DNA of 64,000 nucleotides, taken from positions 1 through 64,000 of the IMG/VR virus record IMGVR_UViG_3300048548_000653; one strand, 5' to 3'. Positions within the stretch are counted from its first letter, which is position 1. Every line of letters starts with the position of its first letter. The notes beneath the pieces are model-generated. The model saw only the letters and a list, made by a program, of their open reading frames with translations, was not told the origin of the DNA and did no database searches. The position numbers were made by a program, and so were the translations under genes. This document shows, piece by piece, positions 5,022-64,000 of this stretch. The DNA is from a virus.

Positions 5022-5604
5022 TTACTTTCTCCAATATGTTATTCCAACTTACGTCTGGATTTCCTCTAATACTCAAAACAACTCTCAATTTATCAGTATC
5101 GTTGCGAGCTCTGTGCATAACGTCTGTGCGTAAAAGTGTAACGCCATTGATCACACAAGACTCTGCACATATATAATCATCGTGTAGTCCTTGTGGCATT
5201 GTGGCAACACCGCCGTGTACAATATTTTCATTGCCAAAATCATTTACATCATCTTCAAACCATTCATTGTAACCACATTCGCCATTTAAAATAGGAATGT
5301 TGATTGCCCATTGTCTCATTACATCACTGTCCGCTACTTTATCTCGATGTAAAAATAATTTTTTATTTGGCTTTGTTACAAATACCTTAATTGTATCTAC
5401 ATCAATGTCAAATTGATTTAAAATATTATCAATAGGCCAGTTATAATCTGTAGCATTAATCAAGTAACTAGTATAGGCATTTATAAAATTAGAATTAAAT
5501 TTAATTTCTTTTGGGTTATCTATATAGTAGCCAATATTTTCTTTATAGGTATTCAACATACCTTCTTGATCAAAATCAATATTTATTGACTTACTGTATT
5601 TCAT
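4981..5604 (-). CDS. 2OG-Fe(II) oxygenase-like protein
   Basis: [24 protein letters not shown]. Confidence 0.65.
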
Positions 5605-43715: not shown

Positions 43716-44003
43716 TGGAATGAGGCCCGTTCTGTTGCTAGGTGGAACCCATACCCCGCATACCTAATTAGGCTGCAATTGCCATTGCTGGCGCACGATT
43801 GTCATTTGCAATTGTGAATGTTGACCAATAACGCAGTCATCCGGTAAACTCCACTTCACTTTCACACCTGTCGATCCTAGTTCAGCCCCATCATAATTAC
43901 TCTATGCCGTAAATTTGTAGTTTTTACGCTACAAAGTAATTATGGTGGAGCTGCCGGGTACTGCCCCCGGGTCCAGTATGCGTTCACGTTGCTTCAACGT
44001 CTA
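43716..44003 (-). ncRNA. ssrA: permuted two-piece tmRNA, alphaproteobacterial type
   Basis: Acceptor piece ...GACCCGGGGGCAGTACCCGGCAGCTCCACCA (ends 43943), then spacer, then GGGGCTGAACTAGGATCGAC (starts 43889); tag ANDNRAPAMAIAA* at 43809-43768; outer ends approximate. Confidence 0.92.
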
Positions 44004-44010
44004 CAGTCTA

Positions 44011-44039
44011 TTTATAACATAGATTTAAGCTTGTGTCAA
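44011..44039 (-). promoter_or_regulatory. ssrA promoter (sigma70 -10 overlapping TATAAATA)
   Basis: TTGACA-N17-TATAAATA. Confidence 0.7.
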
Positions 44040-44047
44040 CAGACAAG

Positions 44048-44492: not shown

Positions 44493-45245
44493 TTAATTAG
44501 ACTTTATAAGTTCGATAACAGTGGCACTAGGGTCAACGGTTCCAAACCTGTATCTATACGGAGTTTTATGATGACTACCGTGATATAGTAAGTCAAACCA
44601 GCATAGTAAATATTTTGCCTTATCCCAATCTTGTACCTCACCGTACCAATGTCCCCAAGTATTAACTATTGAAGATTGAGTTAATACCAGTATACAATGA
44701 AAACAATACAATGAAAATAAAATTGGTGAAATGAAGAACAAACCAAGTAACACACAAACATTTATTAAGATATAGTAATCAGTAGTAAATTTCATTAATT
44801 TAGAACGTTTGTACAATAAACCGTAACTTAATTCTTGTAATTTTTTATCTTTTGGTGTAGGCCAAATAAACCAACCTACAAAAAATGCGCCTATTCTTCC
44901 GTAAATTTTTGGAGAATGAGGATCTCCATCTTTGTCACTAAATTTATGATGAGTGGTATGTGAAGAAACCCAAACAGGTATAGGACCAGCACCGGATAAT
45001 GTTGATAAGAAGACTAATGTATAATGCCAAAATTTATTAGTTTTAAAAGATTGATGAGTAAAATATCGATGATATCCAACACTTGTTGAAAATAGGGCTA
45101 ATAAATATGCAATTAATATTAATAAAATACAGACTATAAGTGGAAGTATGTAAAAAGAATATATTATTCCTATTATTGCAGGTATATGTATTACCCACAA
45201 ATGTATATAATTTTTTTGTATAGTTTGAACATTAGAGTTTTTCAT
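44493..45245 (-). CDS. membrane fatty-acid desaturase (delta-9-like)
   Basis: GYHRYFTH, HTTHHK.SD...DPHSP, NTWGH, HGSHH. Confidence 0.9.
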   Translation of the reverse strand: MKNSNVQTIQKNYIHLWVIHIPAIIGIIYSFYILPLIVCILLILIAYLLALFSTSVGYHRYFTHQSFKTNKFWHYTLVFLSTLSGAGPIPVWVSSHTTHHKFSDKDGDPHSPKIYGRIGAFFVGWFIWPTPKDKKLQELSYGLLYKRSKLMKFTTDYYILINVCVLLGLFFISPILFSLYCFHCILVLTQSSIVNTWGHWYGEVQDWDKAKYLLCWFDLLYHGSHHKTPYRYRFGTVDPSATVIELIKSN

Positions 45246-46961: not shown

Positions 46962-47212
46962 TATAGTGTATATCCTGTTCCTGTATAGTTTGTATTTTCG
47001 ACATATGAAAGTAATTGTTCATATCCGCCTACTTTATGTCCGTTAATTACTATTTGTGGAAATGTGCGAGCTTCTGGAAATTCTTCTAAAACTCTTTCTC
47101 TTTCAAAGTCTTTTCCCATTTCTAAATATTCAAACTCAAAGTTACTTTTTTCACAAAACATCTTTGCCTTTGTACAACTCGGACACGCCGGTTTTCCCCA
47201 AATTTGTATCAT
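46961..47212 (-). CDS. glutaredoxin
   Basis: CPSC, ARTFPQI, VGGY. Confidence 0.92.
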   Translation of the reverse strand: MIQIWGKPACPSCTKAKMFCEKSNFEFEYLEMGKDFERERVLEEFPEARTFPQIVINGHKVGGYEQLLSYVENTNYTGTGYTL

Positions 47213-48312
47213 AGTGAAAATCCTTTTAGGCTGTCTTTGCTTACGTCTTGTTTGATACCACCAATAACATATGATTCAACTTCTGTCTCTTGTGGAGCAA
47301 CTTGTAGCCCAGAGCTACTTAACCAATGTTGTGTCCAAGGAAGTGGGTTGGTATTCACTGGTTGATCAAATATTGCTTGCATACCTAGTGCTTTTAATCT
47401 ACGGTTTGCAATGTACTCGACATATTGATTTAATAACGTTGTGTTTAACCCAATCATTGATCCGTCTTTGAAAAGGTATTCTGCCCAATCTTTTTCTTCA
47501 GCTACACATTCACGCCATAAGTCGTAAACTTCCTCTTGGCAGTCTTTTGCAATTTTGGCCATTTCTGGATCGTCTTTGCCGTTTGCCCACAACTTCAATA
47601 CGTGTGTGCTTAGTGCTAGATGCTGTGCTTCGTCACGAGCAATTAATGAGATAATCTTTGCAGACCCTTCCATTAATTTTAGTTCGCCAAAGCCAAACGT
47701 ACAAGCAAAACTTACGTAAAAACGTAGTCCTTCTAATATATTAACTGTCATCATTGCTAGATACATTTTCTTCTTAACATCATACATCGAACCTTCGCCA
47801 CGATGGAAATATGCATCTGCTGCTTCGTTGAATGCATCGTAGTGTTTGGTTACACTAGTTGCTCTAGCAATAATTTTTTCATCATCTAGAATAGTGTCAA
47901 ACACTTCTGCAGGATCAGCATACACATTTTTCATAATGTGTGTATAACTGCGTGAATGGATTGTTTCAAAGAAATCCCAAGTAACAATACAGCCCTCTAG
48001 TTCAGGAAGTGATACGTGTGGCAAAAATGCTAAACAAGGGCCACGTCCTTGTACACTGTCGAGCAGTGTTTGATACTTTAGATTTGCTGTAAAGATGTGC
48101 TTCTGTTCTGGACGGAAGTTTGCAAAGTCAGCTCTATCTTTTTGTAGACTTACTTCTTCAGGACGCCAAAAGTATCCTAGCATTGTTTGATTCAATTTAT
48201 CAAACACTGGAAATTTAAACACATCATAACGCTGTGTGTTTTGATCTGCTCCGAAGAACATATTCTGTTTTGTGAAGTCTACCTTCTCTTTATTAAAAAC
48301 TGTCTTTGACAT
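47209..48312 (-). CDS. nrdB: ribonucleotide reductase class Ia beta subunit
   Basis: FWRPEEV, LDSVQGR, ETIHSRSY, EGLRFYVSF, RDEAQH, QVAPQE. Confidence 0.97.
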   Translation of the reverse strand: MSKTVFNKEKVDFTKQNMFFGADQNTQRYDVFKFPVFDKLNQTMLGYFWRPEEVSLQKDRADFANFRPEQKHIFTANLKYQTLLDSVQGRGPCLAFLPHVSLPELEGCIVTWDFFETIHSRSYTHIMKNVYADPAEVFDTILDDEKIIARATSVTKHYDAFNEAADAYFHRGEGSMYDVKKKMYLAMMTVNILEGLRFYVSFACTFGFGELKLMEGSAKIISLIARDEAQHLALSTHVLKLWANGKDDPEMAKIAKDCQEEVYDLWRECVAEEKDWAEYLFKDGSMIGLNTTLLNQYVEYIANRRLKALGMQAIFDQPVNTNPLPWTQHWLSSSGLQVAPQETEVESYVIGGIKQDVSKDSLKGFSL

Positions 48313-48345
48313 TTAGATTCCTCTTTCTGTGTATCTCTATAGATA

Positions 48346-48374
48346 ACTATACAGCCATTAAGGCTGTATGTCAA
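48346..48374 (-). promoter_or_regulatory. sigma70-type promoter
   Basis: TTGACA-N17-TATAGT. Confidence 0.65.
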
Positions 48375-48386
48375 CTAGTTTTGTAT

Positions 48387-50705
48387 TTATATTGCGCAGG
48401 CTTCGCAGTATTCTTCATACTCGTCATCTGTGCCAGTAAATTCACCACGTGCCAAAGGTTGATCTACTTGTGTTTCTTCCTGTAATTCACTTGGATCAGT
48501 TTTATAATCATAAGTGTTTTGATAATAACTAGTTTTCCATCCTAGTTTATATGTTTGTAATAGGTCTTGTATCATTACACTCATTGGAACTTCATTGTCA
48601 GGATATTGTGTAGGATTGTAACTCCAGTTGCCACTAATTGCTTGATCAAAGAACTTTTGCATAACTGCAACAACATTTATATATCCTTGATTACCATTCA
48701 TTTCCCATAACAATGTGTAATAGTTCTTTAGAGTTTGGTACTGTGGAACAATCTGCTTAAGAGGCCCTTTTTTACTCTTCTTAACGGACAGGTAACCTCT
48801 AGGTGGCTCGATTCCATTTGTTGCGTTCGACACAACGGAACTGCTCTCTGAAGGCATTTGTGCGGACAATGTGCTGTGCCTAAGACCGAATTCCAATATG
48901 TCTTTCCTAAGAGATGCCCAATCATAATTTAACTTATTCTCTACAATGTTATCGACATCTTTCTTATATGTGTCAATAGGAAGAATGCCGTCTGAGTATT
49001 TAGTGCGGTCAAAGTAGTCACAAGCACCACGTTCCTGCGCTAAGTTGTTGCTGGCTTTTAACAAATAGTATTGAAATGCTTCTGTCAAATCGTGTACAAG
49101 TTTCCACGCTCTGTCTTCTTCGTAACTCACGTGATTTTTAGCAAGGTAATGTGCAAGTCCAATATAGCCTACACCAAGTGAACGTCTTGCCTTTGTGCTA
49201 ATCTCTGCAGCCTTGATTGGATAACGTTGGTAATCAATTATTTCTTCTAAAGCTCTTACTGCTAAATCACATAATTCTTCTAAATCATCTAATGTTTTTA
49301 TTGTGCCAATATTAATAGCACTTAAAATACACAAAGCTATTTCGCCTTCACTATCATCTATATGAGTAAGTGGTTTTGTTGGAAGTGTAATTTCTTGACA
49401 TAGATTACTCATATAAACAGTGTCTTTAAATGAACTGTGCGTGTTACAATGATCAACATTCATAATATAAATGCGTCCAGTTTCTGCACGTTCTTTGATC
49501 AATGCTGAAAATAGTTCCATTGCATCAACTTTCTGTTTTTTGATGCTAGTTTTTCGCTCGTACATTTCGTACATTTCTTTAAACACGTCAGGATCCCCAA
49601 AATATGCTTCGTATAATCCTGGTACGTCGTGGGGGCTAAACAATGTAATGTCGCCGCCCCCGAGCAACCTTTCGTACATTGTTTTGTTAAGTTGAATAGA
49701 ATAATCCAACTTACGAACTCTATTATCTTCTGTGCCTTTGTTGTTCTTGAGTACAAGTATGTCCTCAATCTCTTGATGCCAAAACGGGAAGTGCGTTGTA
49801 GCACTACCGCCACGTACACCATTCTGTGTGCAACAACGCACTGTTGATTCAAACTTCTTTAGGAATGGGATGATTCCTGTGTGCGCAACTTCGCCTCCTC
49901 GAATTTTTGAATTAACTCCTCTGATGCGCCCTGCGTTAATGCCGATGCCAGCTCTCTGCGCTGTGTAACGTCCAATAGACATATCACTGGCAAAAATGGA
50001 ATCAAGCGTGTCATCCGAATCAACGAGGACACAGGAGGCAAACTGTCTGACTGGTGTGCGCACTCCGGCCATAACCGGCGTTGGGATATTGATTCTAAAA
50101 AGTGAGGTCGCATCGTAGTATCTCCTTACATAGTGCATACGTGTTTCTTTAGGATAATTTGCAAATAACGTAGCTGCAATCATCATATACATAAACTGTG
50201 GCGTTTCAAATAATTGTCCATTGGAACGATCTTGGCAAAGGTATTTGTCTACAACTTGTCTTAGTCCAGCGTAGGTAAAGTTCTCGTCACGCTTGTGATT
50301 AATATAGCTATCTAAACGTTCAACTTCCTCAGATGTATAATTATTAAAAATGTCAGAATCATAAACACCTCGTTCAATATTTTTCTCAATCATTTCTTGC
50401 AATGAACAAGATTCGTAACCTCCAAATACTTCTTTATTGGTTCCATACGAAAGCAATCTTGCTGCTGCGTATTGATAGTTTGGGTTTTCCAAACTAATTA
50501 GGTCATTTGCACTTCTAACTAAAATTTCTTGAATTTCTTTTGAGCTCATACCATTATAAAATTGAATATTTGCGTTCATTTCGATTAAACTACTACTTAC
50601 TCCAGCTAAATCCTTACAAGCGTGTTCTACTACTTTGTGGATTTTATCTATGTTTAGCTCTTCTTGTTCGCCATTACGCTTAACGATCATGGTATTATCA
50701 CTCAT
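48387..50705 (-). CDS. nrdA: ribonucleotide reductase class Ia alpha subunit
   Basis: ATP cone VKRNG, QFASC, SNLCQEI, ALCILS, KTSYY, terminal CEAC. Confidence 0.97.
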   Translation of the reverse strand: MSDNTMIVKRNGEQEELNIDKIHKVVEHACKDLAGVSSSLIEMNANIQFYNGMSSKEIQEILVRSANDLISLENPNYQYAAARLLSYGTNKEVFGGYESCSLQEMIEKNIERGVYDSDIFNNYTSEEVERLDSYINHKRDENFTYAGLRQVVDKYLCQDRSNGQLFETPQFMYMMIAATLFANYPKETRMHYVRRYYDATSLFRINIPTPVMAGVRTPVRQFASCVLVDSDDTLDSIFASDMSIGRYTAQRAGIGINAGRIRGVNSKIRGGEVAHTGIIPFLKKFESTVRCCTQNGVRGGSATTHFPFWHQEIEDILVLKNNKGTEDNRVRKLDYSIQLNKTMYERLLGGGDITLFSPHDVPGLYEAYFGDPDVFKEMYEMYERKTSIKKQKVDAMELFSALIKERAETGRIYIMNVDHCNTHSSFKDTVYMSNLCQEITLPTKPLTHIDDSEGEIALCILSAINIGTIKTLDDLEELCDLAVRALEEIIDYQRYPIKAAEISTKARRSLGVGYIGLAHYLAKNHVSYEEDRAWKLVHDLTEAFQYYLLKASNNLAQERGACDYFDRTKYSDGILPIDTYKKDVDNIVENKLNYDWASLRKDILEFGLRHSTLSAQMPSESSSVVSNATNGIEPPRGYLSVKKSKKGPLKQIVPQYQTLKNYYTLLWEMNGNQGYINVVAVMQKFFDQAISGNWSYNPTQYPDNEVPMSVMIQDLLQTYKLGWKTSYYQNTYDYKTDPSELQEETQVDQPLARGEFTGTDDEYEEYCEACAI

Positions 50706-52791: not shown

Positions 52792-53676
52792 TTAGCCGTT
52801 GATTAAGTTAAACTGATTCTTCAACTGTGCAACTACCGCTTGCCTAGTAATGCCCATCCTTTCAGCTATCTCATTATTAGATAGATTTGCGTGATAAAAG
52901 TCAAGTAATTGTTTTAATCTTTCTTCTGTCCAACCCTTCCTTTTGTTCATATAGTCACGGTGTTCCTTATTATATTTCGCTCTTAAAACAGGATCTTTCA
53001 TACGCTCTCTTCGCTGTTTAGCTCTGTGTATTGGATCACCAGTCAACCCGTGCTTGTAATTAGCATTACCAAATCCGCTACGATTTTTGCTGTAATTTGC
53101 TTTAGTTTCTTCGCTATGACGGAACCCAAGACCGCCATTTAATTTTGCACGTGACGCCACTATTTTTTCAATAGTTTCTTTTGGTTGCTTTTTACCTAGC
53201 AAATGTGGAACTAATTCGCCGCTTGCAAACATACGTTTTTTTGTTTCGCTTTGTCTTTTGTTCATTTCAGCTGTAGGCTTCCAGCCTTTCCTACGTGTAG
53301 CCCACTCGTTTTTCATCCATTGACGTTTAGCTTCTCTTTGTTCCTCTGTCAATTTTCTGCCATACATATGATTATTAGGTCCTGATTGATCTATGTATCT
53401 TGGATCGCCTATTCCAACATTGTAATATCTATTCCAACATCTTTTTTTCCTGTTCTTTAGATATGTGTGCTCTACAAATGCTATTTCTTCTTTAGTGCCT
53501 GTAAAAATAATTCTACGTCTAAATCCTTGAGGAATGTTATCCTTTGTAAAACTCTCCATCAACGTAGATGAATGAGTATAACTATTGTCTGGACTGCCTT
53601 GATGCTTTCCTATGTAATACATTTTGTTTTTTGCATCATACCAAATGTAAACAAAGCCGTCATCCGTGTTTTTCAT
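52792..53676 (-). CDS. free-standing GIY-YIG (Seg-like) homing endonuclease with NUMOD3-like repeats and C-terminal HTH
   Basis: GFVYIW...YYIGKH, FRRRI, E, YYN; MYGRKLTEE, HSEETK; SNNEIAERMGITRQAV. Confidence 0.85.
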   Translation of the reverse strand: MKNTDDGFVYIWYDAKNKMYYIGKHQGSPDNSYTHSSTLMESFTKDNIPQGFRRRIIFTGTKEEIAFVEHTYLKNRKKRCWNRYYNVGIGDPRYIDQSGPNNHMYGRKLTEEQREAKRQWMKNEWATRRKGWKPTAEMNKRQSETKKRMFASGELVPHLLGKKQPKETIEKIVASRAKLNGGLGFRHSEETKANYSKNRSGFGNANYKHGLTGDPIHRAKQRRERMKDPVLRAKYNKEHRDYMNKRKGWTEERLKQLLDFYHANLSNNEIAERMGITRQAVVAQLKNQFNLING

Positions 53677-54343
53677 AATACTGCCTGCATCTATTCCACC
53701 ACTCTTGTTCCCACTCTGCGAACTCGTCTGGCCACAAATCAAACTGCTGATACTCCAAGCCTCTACTGCACATAAAAATGTGTCCTTCACGTATGTCTGT
53801 GCCGTGTACTTCGTTGTGCCCTAATGCATATGCTGTAAGCTGTAAATAATAATCCTCTACCCATTCAGGCTTTTTGGGTTTATTGGTTTGCTTAAAATCC
53901 ATAATACAAGGATTGCCTTTGTATTGTCCTACCAAGTCAGTAGTACCTGCATAAATGTTAGGAACATAAAGGGGTACTTCGCTTCCCCATATCTCATCTA
54001 CGTGTACCATTGCTTCATCACGTATGACACAAGCCATTTGATATGCTTGTTGTGCATAAGGATTACTACCTGCACTTTCTGTCCACACGCCGTTGTCAAC
54101 ATAGTCTTCAAGATACTTGTGCATACGTGTGCCTACGCCGCTGGCTTCGGTTACAATCTCTTGTGCTTTTTGTTCACCTACACGTTTTTTCCACGCAATA
54201 AGATGACTCATATCTTTGGTACCGCTAAGAATAGTAGTTACGCTTGCTACTGGTGCACCACCTGGTGCAGCGTAACGGCGTTTGCCATTTACTTCTACAC
54301 GTTTTAATTTTTCGTATGTATACTTAGGTTTGATTAATGTCAT
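53660..54343 (-). CDS. PD-(D/E)xK RecB-like exonuclease
   Basis: SVTTIL, GTRMH, YAGTTDL, DFKQ, QLTAYA. Confidence 0.88.
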   Translation of the reverse strand: MTLIKPKYTYEKLKRVEVNGKRRYAAPGGAPVASVTTILSGTKDMSHLIAWKKRVGEQKAQEIVTEASGVGTRMHKYLEDYVDNGVWTESAGSNPYAQQAYQMACVIRDEAMVHVDEIWGSEVPLYVPNIYAGTTDLVGQYKGNPCIMDFKQTNKPKKPEWVEDYYLQLTAYALGHNEVHGTDIREGHIFMCSRGLEYQQFDLWPDEFAEWEQEWWNRCRQYYEKHG

Positions 54344-59856: not shown

Positions 59857-60615
59857 TTATATCATTTTTTCTATGTTGGCAATATAGTTGACCATACTAT
59901 GATCAGAGAAGCTATCAATGCCACCTTGCTTGATACCCATCCACATACCACGCCAGCGATCTTTTGTACGCTGCCAAGTTGTGAGTTTACGCTCTAAGCC
60001 GTGTGCATTCATATAATGTTCTGTGCCGTGATGCACATAACCCATAGCTCTTAATGGCACTCTAGTAACAATATCATTATTGTTTACCCAACGATGATGT
60101 GCTACATTTAAACTACGACAGTAACCACGCCATCCTACTCTTGGCGAACCGTATGTGTACACTTCCTGTATATCTGGCATATCAACATCGCAGTTGCATC
60201 TACTAGCCATAATAGTTGTCATAGCAGCACCTAAACTATGTCCGCAAAACCAAATGTTCTTGTCTCGGTTAGTTTTACGTGCTAGGTCTTCAGATACCAT
60301 AGGCCATAGCTCATCTACTTCTGCTTTGAATCCTCTGTGTACTCTACTGACTGTTTCTGCTATCACTGGTGTTGCTTTCAAATCAGCCTTAATATCGTTA
60401 AACTCACTTGGTTGCGTTCCTCTACAAGCAATTACTAAATCTATCTTATTCATAAATCGATATGCCTGTGCTCCGTCTTTGTTGTAAAATTCTACTGTAG
60501 TAAACCCTAATTTTCTAACATCTTTTTTTACTTGGTCTATATTGTCATTGTATGCTATACTTGCTAGTTTTGCAAATAGTAAACTTCGTTCCATAAATTT
60601 CATTTCTGTAATCAT
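59857..60615 (-). CDS. class 3 lipase
   Basis: ACRGT, VHRGF, GHSLGAA, YTYGSPRVG, NNDIVTRVP, DHSM. Confidence 0.92.
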   Translation of the reverse strand: MITEMKFMERSLLFAKLASIAYNDNIDQVKKDVRKLGFTTVEFYNKDGAQAYRFMNKIDLVIACRGTQPSEFNDIKADLKATPVIAETVSRVHRGFKAEVDELWPMVSEDLARKTNRDKNIWFCGHSLGAAMTTIMASRCNCDVDMPDIQEVYTYGSPRVGWRGYCRSLNVAHHRWVNNNDIVTRVPLRAMGYVHHGTEHYMNAHGLERKLTTWQRTKDRWRGMWMGIKQGGIDSFSDHSMVNYIANIEKMI

Positions 60616-61256: not shown

Positions 61257-62228
61257 TTAAAGGCCGTTAGGCACAATAATATAATGGATCATCAACACAA
61301 GTGCAACACTTGCACCCAAGCCTACCATCATCTTACCAAAATCCTTTGCAACAAGTGGAAACACCGACTTGGTTTTCTTCTTGCCAAAGTATGTTGCCAT
61401 TGCCAACTCACGACCTGCTAACAAACCAACAAATACCCAAGTTGTACTCATTGGAATGTCATTCAACTCTTTGAAGAAGTAAAGACACAACCAATAAAAC
61501 AAGTCAATCAAGGTTGCACTTCTAACGTAGCGTGTGTTGTGTTTCTCTAGTACAATCTTTTGGATCTTACCACCACGTTCTCTAAACATAAAGAACAAGC
61601 CTGCAACAAACACAACGCTGACGAACACCATTAAGTCTGCTGGTACTTCACGTGGAAGAAACACTGCAATATTTGCAACATCGTGTGACAACCAAGTGAA
61701 CCACAATCCGCCTGTTGCTACCCATTGTGCAATACGCCAAAACTTTTTATTGCCTTCGCTCACTGGTTTTGTTTCGTCATACCACTTGCCAAAGTATTTG
61801 TGTATAGCAAACCATACTGCATAAGCAAATGCGGCTGCTACACCATAACCCATAATGCTTTTCATCAGCATCTTCTCTAGCACAAAGGTACTAGCAAACA
61901 CTGACAGCACCAAGAAACTTGTGCTAACTGGCACACCCATCCTTGTAAGTGCTACAAGTATAGCAGGTGCGGCTGCGTGATACCATTGTACTTCTTGGAA
62001 AGGTATTTTGTTTAAGCGACCATAACTGATATCGCCTCCGTTCATATACCATCCATACCAGAGTGTATATAATAAAACAGCCGAAGCGGCTGCCCATAAT
62101 ACTTTAAAGTTGAATCGCTCGTTGTTTGATGCCATCCAAGTACCGAGCGTTTGTACTGAATCGTTTGCTATAACTGCATAGGCAGCTAGTAAGAAGCCAA
62201 CAAGGCTCCATAGTGTGAGTAGTTCCAT
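61257..62228 (-). CDS. PiT-like phosphate/anion transporter
   Basis: ANDSVQT and HDVAN repeats, PVSTS and PMSTT; about 9-10 TM segments. Confidence 0.7.
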   Translation of the reverse strand: MELLTLWSLVGFLLAAYAVIANDSVQTLGTWMASNNERFNFKVLWAAASAVLLYTLWYGWYMNGGDISYGRLNKIPFQEVQWYHAAAPAILVALTRMGVPVSTSFLVLSVFASTFVLEKMLMKSIMGYGVAAAFAYAVWFAIHKYFGKWYDETKPVSEGNKKFWRIAQWVATGGLWFTWLSHDVANIAVFLPREVPADLMVFVSVVFVAGLFFMFRERGGKIQKIVLEKHNTRYVRSATLIDLFYWLCLYFFKELNDIPMSTTWVFVGLLAGRELAMATYFGKKKTKSVFPLVAKDFGKMMVGLGASVALVLMIHYIIVPNGL

Positions 62229-62427
62229 TTCGTTCTCCTTTGTTTGACGGCTTTACCCCGTCGCTCACAAATGTAACTTTTATAAGTTACAATTTTAATT
62301 ATCATTTGTCAACCTGATCATAAATAAAACGGCCAGAAAAGAGAAGTTATTCACACCTTCGACCTGACACGTTGAAAAGACAACGGGCGTCCGCCATATA
62401 AGACAGCATTACATATTGGAGAAAACA

Positions 62428-62619
62428 ATGACAACTATAGCAAACCTGCTTGGTAGTGTAATGACTGCGGTCAGACTACCAAGAAGAAAATCAGGATTGA
62501 TGAAGATCAATCACAACCTTGAAACTTATGTTAAGACAGAATTTAACAAAGGTGATCAGGCATACGTCTTAGACTGTATGCTACGTGGAGACACTCTCGA
62601 CAGACGTAACATAATATAA
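62428..62619 (+). CDS. small hypothetical protein
   Basis: GGAG RBS; YVKTEF..D. Confidence 0.6.
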   Translation: MTTIANLLGSVMTAVRLPRRKSGLMKINHNLETYVKTEFNKGDQAYVLDCMLRGDTLDRRNII

Positions 62620-62627
62620 ACTAAAAT

Positions 62628-62659
62628 AGTAGGGCAGCTTCACAGTTGCCCTATTTTTC
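62628..62659 (+). terminator. intrinsic terminator
   Basis: TAGGGCAGC-TTCACA-GTTGCCCTA-TTTTT. Confidence 0.75.
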
Positions 62660-62819
62660 TGGGTGCGCAGATATGCACAGTTGCATTGTACGCATATCGG
62701 GTTTTTGCTATTTGCACTTGTTTTTCACGGTTATACGTGTTAAATATAATTGTAGAAGGAGAAAAACTAACGCAAGTTAGACTCGGATCACACATACATA
62801 TATAGATAGGAAAAAATAA

Positions 62820-63080
62820 ATGACTACTTTAGTAGCAAATACCTTTGAGATTGTTGGATTACACGGCATCGCCAACTTTTTCAAAAAACTAGGTGCCGAA
62901 CTCAAAAGACGTAGACGCATTCGTCAAACAATTAACGAACTATCAAGACTTACAAACCACGAACTAAACGACATTGGTCTTAGTCGCGGAGACATTTGGT
63001 ATGTTGCAAACCAGTCATACCCAAAAGCACTAAGTGGCGAAGCTGTAGAAGCAAACCGCAACTTGAGAGGTTGGGTATAA
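62820..63080 (+). CDS. DUF1127 (YjiS-like) protein
   Basis: RRRRIRQTINELSRLTNHELNDIGLSRGDI. Confidence 0.9.
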   Translation: MTTLVANTFEIVGLHGIANFFKKLGAELKRRRRIRQTINELSRLTNHELNDIGLSRGDIWYVANQSYPKALSGEAVEANRNLRGWV

Positions 63081-63271
63081 TGGAAGCAGTAGGAAACACC
63101 CCCGTACCAACACCAAAGTTTATCAAAACACTTGGCAAATATGTCGTTGCATTTGCAATGGGCGTATGGGCATTTGGTGAATCGGCAGGCAGAGCAAGAG
63201 CAGCCGCTGAACTATCACGCCAAGGCTACTACAAAGAAGCCAAAGCACTTATGTTGGATGACAACAGATGA
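63080..63271 (+). CDS. small hypothetical protein
   Basis: [22 protein letters not shown]. Confidence 0.65.
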
Positions 63272-63489
63272 CAGGTGATATAGCAACAATGGGCGCAATG
63301 ATTGGCGCCGGACTAGCAACATTCGGAATGGGTGGCGCTGCCATCGCAGTAGGAATGATTGTTGGTAGTGTACTCAAAGTTATGCCTAAGAAGCCTGACA
63401 ATGGTACAATGTTTGTCGGTGTTGCATTTGCAGAAGCATTAGGTATATTCGCATTCTTAGTAGCACTCCTACTAATGTTTGCTGTCTAA
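63268..63489 (+). CDS. atpE: F0F1 ATP synthase c subunit homolog with altered loop
   Basis: [38 protein letters not shown]. Confidence 0.9.
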
Positions 63490-63710
63490 TGGTAGGCGAT
63501 CAACACATAGAGATATCAGCACAGGTAGTACAGAAGCTAGGGTTTTATATGTTTGTAGTAATGACTTCATTGCTTATTATATGTATAGCCTTTGGCTTCT
63601 ACGCTGTGATTGATCAGTTCAAACAACCAAATTGGCAAGAAGCGTGTATCGCACAAGGCGGTGTACCAGTACAAATAGAAAAGTCAACATACGACTGCAA
63701 AGGAATATAA
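63489..63710 (+). CDS. small membrane protein
   Basis: TM segment then C..QGG.....C. Confidence 0.6.
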   Translation: MVGDQHIEISAQVVQKLGFYMFVVMTSLLIICIAFGFYAVIDQFKQPNWQEACIAQGGVPVQIEKSTYDCKGI

Positions 63711-63711
63711 T

Positions 63712-63846
63712 ATGTTTAAGAAGTTTATGAAAGCAATGGAATACAGAAGTTATTGTATGGCAATCAGGGAACTTAGAAGCAGAGGCTATTATAAAAAAGC
63801 TGAAGAAATCTCTGAGTACAAACACAAAATGTTTCCGACCTACTAA
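63712..63846 (+). CDS. 44 aa protein, paralog of 63080-63271 (not in ORF track)
   Basis: MFKKFMKAMEYRSYCMAIRELRSRGYYKKAEEI... Confidence 0.6.
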   Translation: MFKKFMKAMEYRSYCMAIRELRSRGYYKKAEEISEYKHKMFPTY

Positions 63847-63913
63847 TAGGTTGACAAACGCTAAATAATACGTTAGATTAATAACACTACACACATACAC
63901 ATAGGAGAATATA

Positions 63914-64000
63914 ATGAGCGTAGACACAAAGTACGGCGAAGCCATCTTTAAACAAACACAGGAAGTTGCTGAAATGTTTAAAGCCGCAATGCCTAAAATC
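63914..64000 (+). CDS. partial CDS (MSVDTKYGEAIFK...)
   Basis: TTGACA-N17-TAGATT promoter and AGGAG RBS. Confidence 0.6.
   Translation, partial: MSVDTKYGEAIFKQTQEVAEMFKAAMPKI

Follow-up and report, generated by a model that had tools for sequence, protein, structure and literature searches.

An ATP synthase c subunit with a rewritten cytoplasmic cap, and its orphan membrane partner, in marine T4-like phages of alphaproteobacteria

Introduction

Why would a virus carry a single rotor subunit of the ATP synthase, and carry it in altered form? Few machines in biology are as conserved as the ATP synthase rotor, and we know of no virus that carries a modified part of it. The question is posed by the window analyzed here (the whole stretch of DNA, 64,000 nucleotides), which covers the opening 64 kb of an IMG/VR virus record of 76,977 bp (GC ~37%; 24% complete according to CheckV) and which encodes, close to its 3′ end, a 73-aa protein of the c subunit family. 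An earlier note, made from the letters of the window, had read this protein as a stand-alone c subunit without the loop that couples the rotor to F1, and had proposed that it is not a helper gene but a ring-poisoning or uncoupling subunit. In the literature, we found no description of a phage-encoded c subunit of this kind; the only phage Fo genes that we found were those for a, b, and c that PMC3877843 cites from an environmental GOS scaffold of a cyanophage.

Here, we compare this protein, referred to below as phage c, with its viral and cellular relatives, and study the genes that surround it. The gene is real, widespread, and strongly selected, and its product is a new variant in a known protein family, with an orphan partner. 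Because phage c always travels with that partner, a phage-only one-helix protein (H), as an optional insert, it is probable that the pair tampers with the energy machine of the host.

Results

A c subunit with an intact rotor core and a rewritten loop

The gene for phage c lies among small genes on the + strand, where we distinguished the following features:

62629–62659, + strand: intrinsic-terminator-like hairpin and U run (predicted fold: 12-bp stem, −19.4 kcal/mol, z = −4.4 against shuffles, then UUUUU)
62722–62750, + strand: sigma-70-like promoter candidate (TTTTCA, 17-nt spacer, TATAAT; 10/12 consensus match)
62820–63080, + strand: gene E, DUF1127 protein of 86 aa that opens the operon; stop codon overlapping the F start (TAATG)
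63080–63271, + strand: gene F, one-helix peptide of 63 aa belonging to the ancestral operon; stop codon overlapping the c start (ATGA)
63268–63489, + strand: phage c, 73-aa derivative of the F-type ATP synthase c subunit
63489–63710, + strand: gene H, 73-aa orphan; its start overlaps the c stop (TAATG)
63712–63846, + strand: gene I, 44-aa helical peptide

The open reading frame of phage c is intact, opens with ATG, and matches PF00137 (ATP-synt_C) over the entire model (positions 1–60 of 60) at 47.6 bits, against a cut-off of 24; the score in a genome-wide profile search was 46.9 bits. Helix 1 retains its glycine-rich G/A-x-G repeats, and the proton-carrying carboxylate is Glu56, which sits in the middle of helix 2 in the context A-F-A-E-A-L. 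An AF2 monomer model built from 35 homologs (mean pLDDT 80) predicts a helical hairpin, with helices at residues 5–38 and 45–72. The top Foldseek matches to this model are c subunits, the best of them being 5DN6_J (TM 0.73), the c subunit of Paracoccus denitrificans, and the same chain is the top solved-structure match by sequence. The full-length profile match, the modeled hairpin, and Glu56 thus uphold what had been said of the protein at the outset, namely that both helices and the proton-carrying Glu are intact.

The loop between the helices is a different matter. It contains no R-(N/Q)-P, as had been claimed; K-V-M-P-K-K-P-D stands in for the R-N-P cap. At 73 aa, phage c is 5 residues short of the 78-aa cellular form, with a 5-residue loop gap against 5DN6_J in the HMMER alignment, which matches the ~5 aa first estimated. 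The register of the loop can be read from viral intermediates of host length that carry A-M-P-H-R and align without gaps to host R-N-P-x-x. These place V38-M39-P40 of phage c opposite host R-N-P, such that the Pro has been kept, the Arg and Asn have been lost, and the deletion lies downstream. Since K41-K42 come after Pro40, the K-K-P that the earlier note had set in the place of RNP is not its equivalent, although the broader point of the note, that the R-(Q/N)-P loop is lacking, stands.

Phage c belongs to the PF00137 family and departs from a bona fide AtpE in three respects, namely its equivalog score, its lack of the R-(N/Q)-P loop, and its setting apart from other atp genes. Against the NCBIfam equivalog for alphaproteobacterial AtpE (NF005733), it scores 60.8 bits, below the cut-off of 85, and PHROGs holds no family for it. 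A search for fused or longer forms gave a single match, a cellular a-c read-through at 57% identity, and no such form of phage c. The AtpE of Rhodobacterales (the P. denitrificans c12 ring, 5DN6 chain J) shares with phage c the Pfam family, the hairpin, the glycine-rich helix 1, a near-identical helix 2, and the carboxylate. In contrast to that AtpE, phage c has no R-N-P, has a cap that is both rewritten and 5 residues shorter, and falls below the equivalog cut-off; further, it is encoded alone beside the orphan one-helix H, whereas AtpE is encoded beside atpB and atpF.

In E. coli, work from the Fillingame laboratory reportedly found Arg41 and Gln42 of subunit c to be needed to bind and couple F1. 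The E. coli uncE polar-loop mutants (Arg41, Gln42, Pro43) resemble phage c in that a loop Arg/Gln has been lost from an otherwise intact subunit. However, those are laboratory point mutants of the sole c gene, whereas the change in phage c is natural and conserved, comes with a deletion and a partner, and exists beside a wild-type host copy. For c-rings, the cytoplasmic loop is described as a conserved R-Q-P loop (PMC5376962, PMC2914638).

Phage-type and cellular c subunits compared

A search of 5.8 billion proteins returned 457 homologs of phage c. Among the 80 IMG/VR viral loci that encode a protein of this type, none has R-(N/Q)-P, whereas R-N-P is present in every one of the best 80 cellular matches among GTDB genomes (one per species, from 185,579 prokaryote species). 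All 80 cellular matches are from Rhodobacterales (54%–65% identity), in keeping with the Rhodobacteraceae-like character ascribed to the protein from the start, and identity to Rhodobacterales AtpE outside the loop rises to 72%–80%. Among the outcomes that the earlier note had named as speaking against its reading, two concern sequence comparison, namely that cellular homologs share the altered loop, or that close phage homologs retain RNP and this one copy has drifted. The census went the other way on both counts (R-N-P in 80/80 of the nearest cellular homologs and RNP in 0/80 of the viral loci), and the loss of RNP is conserved in the phages.

The viral caps fall into at least five classes that differ in length, some of them without the Pro. 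The class to which the window belongs reads K-x-M-P-K-K-x-D-x-x-T, in proteins of 73 aa; a 75-aa form has G-E-G-D inserted, and a host-length class reads A-M-P-H-R-S-x-E-Q-N-A-N. Some c variants come from metagenomes only, such as P0110, which has an S-N-P-R loop, P0105, and P0113; another variant, P0088, lies on a 328-kb contig. A search of viral contigs seeded with P0110 recovered nothing beyond the class already known.

Phylogenetic analysis of 234 sequences by maximum likelihood placed the 138 of phage type on one side of a branch. Its SH-aLRT value is 86 when the 18 loop columns are included and 80 when they are left out, although 60 columns resolve little besides this branch. The placement fits a single capture of a Rhodobacterales atpE gene that was then remodelled.

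Outside the cap, little distinguishes the two sets. Alignment columns of phage and cellular sequences are interchangeable except at positions 30–50, the cytoplasmic cap, and at two shifted positions, 2 and 62. Of the 26 positions of helix 2, 22 reach at least 95% conservation in phages and 21 do so in cells. Glu56 never varies across the 138 phage-type and 96 cellular sequences, and its neighbors are likewise invariant in both sets. Among the short-loop genes (36 distinct), dN/dS is 0.086 overall, 0.10 for helix 1, and 0.04 for helix 2. The loop has a pN/pS of 0.21 at a pS of 0.75 (synonymous sites saturated); within it, K37, P40, and T47 are invariant, and M39, K41, and D44 are each limited to two residue types. 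The low dN/dS and the conserved new motif indicate that the gene is not decaying. The rotor core of phage c is as tightly constrained as its cellular counterpart, and in place of the old cap stands a new motif that is itself under constraint, conserved and lineage-specific, and so goes beyond simple loss. The differences cluster in this cytoplasmic cap, where the gamma/epsilon foot of F1 docks in F-ATP synthases.

A two-gene insert in an older operon

The genes from 62820 to 63846 are tightly packed, with overlaps between E and F (TAATG), F and c (ATGA), and c and H (TAATG). Gene E matches PF06568 at 52 bits as well as phrog_26566, and is found upstream of c in 73 of the 80 viral loci. Gene F has no family match in Pfam or PHROGs; its relatives in viral contigs number 220. 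Of the best 80 of these 220 F loci, roughly three quarters have I directly after F with no c-H between them, and in such c-less loci the F stop overlaps the I start. F and I, which flank the insert, look like paralogs, and a helical motif, E-L-(S)R-x-G-Y-Y-K-x-A, is common to I and the C-terminal part of F. E-F-I is an older three-gene small-protein operon with a DUF1127 gene, present in more than 200 viral contigs, and c-H is an optional two-gene insert located exactly between its F and I genes.

The insert is absent from most relatives that carry the DUF1127 operon, including close ones, and the c-less loci often share further flanking genes with the record, such as those for a 323-aa membrane protein and 5-aminolevulinate (ALA) synthase. 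The F protein of c-less loci is 85%–90% identical to that of the window, compared with 70% in a c-bearing relative (L003) whose c is 98%–99% identical; the c-H module therefore moves between cassette backgrounds. One contig from an RNA library joins position 63253 to 63712 through 13 other letters, and matches the c-less junction of relatives.

Among the relatives that bear phage c are a 221-kb record (100% complete) and a 151-kb record, both of which encode a T4-type major capsid protein Gp23 (E ~1e-146). In the INPHARED phage collection, there was no match to 55–64 kb of the window by megablast or to phage c by tblastn, so these searches revealed no cultured relative of the region. The genes for phage c and H make up an accessory module, which is carried by T4-like marine phages that infect alphaproteobacteria.

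H, the obligate partner of phage c

Gene H follows c in 79 of the 80 viral loci, and in a search seeded with H, c lies immediately upstream in all 67 testable loci. H is thus an obligate, translationally coupled partner of phage c. The protein has a short N-terminal segment, one transmembrane helix, and a small C-terminal domain with a Cys pair. In the alignment, Cys32 and G36-F37 of the transmembrane helix are invariant. The AF2 monomer model is confident for a helix at residues 3–44 and of low confidence for the C-terminal part, which one sub-lineage has lost. The conserved Cys pair in that part suggests a periplasmic location.

Single-pass helices are found with rotor rings elsewhere: small subunits lie inside the c-rings of V-ATPases, and AtpI/UncI proteins are c-ring assembly factors. 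H shares with these the pairing of a small membrane protein with a c-ring, but has no detectable similarity to any of them. Neither Pfam, PHROG, nor NCBIfam has a match for H. A profile search of 1.84 billion representatives found just seven related clusters, none longer than 104 aa, and no distant kin, and the ESM Atlas returned only low-scoring clusters of viral hypothetical proteins. Two candidate identities were set aside. For H as an AtpI/UncI c-ring assembly factor, there was no Pfam or PHROG match, and the profile search gave only the seven clusters; H as a remnant of a host b' subunit was unsupported, both in a comparison by eye with b/b' features and given the lack of a Pfam match.

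Signals for expression

Upstream of gene E, the hairpin at 62629–62659 is predicted to close the preceding gene (62416–62619) and thereby to separate it from the cassette, and a sigma-70-like promoter candidate follows at 62722–62750. Contigs assembled from RNA libraries of three metatranscriptome runs (two studies) start at 62751–62761, just 3′ of the promoter candidate, and are 100% identical to the window; one of them, 717 nt long, spans E, F, and c and extends into H. None of four RNA runs covers 62616–62723. As these contigs carry no strand or level and may derive from DNA, they are a weak hint that the E-F-c-H operon is transcribed from its own promoter. The promoter is not visibly conserved in relatives: across 70 loci, the best sigma-70-like match upstream of E mostly scores 7–9 of 12, and its distance from E varies. 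The 160 nt upstream of E contain no T4 late-type TATAAATA. An Rfam scan of 62200–64000 gave nothing.

No other ATP synthase gene among those sought

The profile set used for the record and its relatives consisted of subunits a (PF00119), b (PF00430), alpha/beta (PF00006), and epsilon (PF02823). None of these profiles had a match above cut-off in the 76,977-bp record, which extends the original statement that the window holds no other atp genes, and none had one in four large relatives, including the complete 221-kb T4-like genome. The same profiles did recover their families in most control genomes. Taken with the loss of the loop in 80/80 viral loci and the strong purifying selection, this result sustains the view that phage c is not a plain helper gene.

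Discussion

In a widespread group of marine phages, the proton-carrying core of a c subunit has been kept under cell-like constraint, its F1-coupling surface has been rewritten, and a new protein has been paired with it. We give somewhat less than even chances to the reading that we prefer, in which rings of phage c use the host's subunit a and are uncoupled from F1, acting as a leak or a dead-end rotor, while H assembles, plugs, or regulates them. The c-H module would be expressed with the DUF1127 operon from its own promoter, and phage c would enter the host membrane and build or join Fo-type rings. The phage is without a subunit a of its own, and rings containing phage c would still pass protons at that of the host. 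F1 would fail to grip these rings, which would disconnect proton flow from ATP synthesis and hydrolysis; the outcome may be a regulated leak, or a dead-end rotor that ties up the stator. H would be produced in step with phage c by way of the overlapping stop and start, and may serve as its assembly factor, plug, or regulator.

Several lines of evidence bear on this preferred reading. Given the invariant outer helix and Glu56, and a phage that lacks subunit a, phage c most likely works against the subunit a of the host, and the constraint across the whole outer helix, seen in helix 2, fits a rotor that still meets it. Since the cap docks gamma/epsilon, and since the E. coli Arg and Gln are reportedly needed for F1 binding, rings of phage c should be uncoupled from F1. 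Against the same reading, new rings would need free host subunit a, and a phage that needs ATP would seem to pay a high price for disabling its synthesis. Further, the new caps are rich in Lys and Arg and might still contact acidic residues of gamma/epsilon, and simple poisoning leaves the need for H unexplained.

The question of poisoning depends on whether phage and host subunits mix. Assembled host c-rings are stable, from which we infer that a phage-made c subunit would mainly build new rings and would rarely mix with host c, and this bears on the ring poisoning first proposed. That proposal holds insofar as it discounted drift and a plain helper; it was made without H, the optional nature of the c-H insert, and the conserved new cap motif.

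We advance only tentatively, as a possible but rather doubtful reading, that c-H is a viral effector acting on the rotor of the host ATP synthase, in which a proton-running c that F1 does not grip is combined with a plug or regulator to give a switchable leak or a block of Fo-F1 coupling. If this effector reading is true, c-H would be the first case known of a virus encoding a modifier of the ATP synthase rotor. Should the pair uncouple or block the enzyme, it would reveal a new means of phage control over host energy, membrane potential, the exclusion of rivals, or the timing of lysis in abundant ocean bacteria. It would also provide a natural "separation-of-function" c subunit for studies of Fo-F1 coupling and ring assembly, and the question would be testable because near relatives naturally differ in whether they have the insert.

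The strongest alternative, unlikely in our judgment but deserving of serious attention, is that phage c and H form a membrane complex of their own: homo-oligomeric c rings apart from host Fo, with H inside or beside them, forming an ion pore or another membrane device. Such a complex could be a viroporin-like depolarizer that serves superinfection exclusion, host shut-down, or the timing of lysis. The obligate pairing of phage c with a one-helix protein agrees with this alternative, as does the module being optional and mobile like other accessory phage genes, and so would the expectation that new subunits mostly end up in new rings. A precedent is the mitochondrial c-subunit leak channel gated by F1, in which a purified, F1-free c-ring is proposed to conduct ions and depolarize the membrane, F1 closing the channel (PMC9433415); a ring of phage c that is unable to bind F1 would lack that gate. 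However, neither the invariant Glu56 nor the conservation of the outer helix in 138 sequences, including its lipid-facing positions, is needed for a pore through the lumen. No lysis gene was recognized by eye near the cassette, where scans of E, F, and H gave DUF1127 or no family; holins and pinholins, which are small two-helix lysis proteins, lie beside an endolysin or spanin. The mitochondrial channel model is eukaryotic, and the idea of a c-ring pore is itself disputed.

We regard it as improbable that phage c is a working helper, one that couples to host F1 through its new basic cap and sustains ATP synthesis by supplying extra or altered rotor subunits that change, for example, ring size or proton affinity. 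In favor of a helper, phage c has an intact rotor core and Glu56, and the cap retains Pro40 and a net positive charge. Yet the Arg that is invariant in 80/80 host-group homologs has been lost in every phage copy, and the caps now form at least five classes, which differ in length and in part lack the Pro, a divergence that is unexpected if a single gamma/epsilon surface of the host must still fit. The score under the NCBIfam equivalog cut-off (60.8 vs. 85) and the absence of the c-H module from close relatives likewise speak against a helper. The phage-borne Fo genes of the GOS cyanophage scaffold offer some precedent, as they too belong to the membrane sector; to judge from the passage that cites them (in PMC3877843), they are three genes (a, b, and c), presumably ordinary, whereas phage c is encoded alone, without the F1-docking motif and with a phage-only partner.

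More improbable still is that the pair is a decoy or shield, mimicking host c such that it absorbs or blocks an attacker of that subunit, be it a host defense factor, a toxin, or the effector of a competing phage. The surface that faces the membrane has stayed host-like while the F1-facing cap has been freed, and conflict genes are typically found in some near relatives and not in others, as c-H is; however, no such attacker was found, no defense or anti-defense gene was recognized beside c-H, and the idea is pure conjecture. Least of all do we credit a chance-acquired host gene in decay, since, although the loop is the most variable part of phage c, drift as the cause of its loss is refuted by a dN/dS of 0.086 with saturated synonymous sites, and the new loop motif is conserved in at least 80 intact copies that share one origin and an obligate partner.

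Host and other genes of the record

Signals in the record itself point to an alphaproteobacterial host. A permuted, two-piece alphaproteobacterial tmRNA at 43719–44043 (− strand) scores 138 bits against RF01849 and 120 bits against RF04321, with a tag peptide that ARAGORN gives as A-N-D-N-R-A-P-A-M-A-I-A-A, and this alpha-type tmRNA is a strong signal for such a host. A 332-aa ORF at 52792–53790 (− strand) has at its C-terminus a weak, sub-threshold match to the domain of the cell-cycle regulator GcrA (24.9 bits vs. a cut-off of 26.9), as well as a match to the NUMOD3 motif (24 bits vs. 20.4). With the DUF1127 gene, the tmRNA and the sub-threshold GcrA match make up host signals that are alphaproteobacterial.

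Just past the window, at 65465–66664 of the record (positions 5465–6664 of L002), lies a gene for a 5-aminolevulinate synthase of the hemA type, with 566 bits against TIGR01821 (cut-off 339). This enzyme catalyzes the step with which alphaproteobacteria begin to make haem and bacteriochlorophyll, and its gene is kept also in relatives without the c-H pair. It is followed, at 66646–73768 of the record (6646–13768 of L002), by what appears by eye to be a sugar-modification-like block, with methyltransferase-like, NAD-dependent epimerase-like, and DegT-type aminotransferase-like ORFs. Accessory membrane or lipid genes near the cassette encode a fatty-acid-desaturase-like protein (44493–45245, − strand), a class 3 lipase (59857–60615, − strand), and the 323-aa multi-pass membrane protein (61257–62228, − strand), which has no family and is 88%–96% conserved in relatives. 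A cluster of four tRNA genes at 2410–2739 (− strand) comprises Trp(cca), Met(cat), Gly(tcc), and one of Ser type whose anticodon, act, is unusual. The nrdA and nrdB genes of a class I ribonucleotide reductase, ordinary for large phages, occupy 47209–50705 (− strand).
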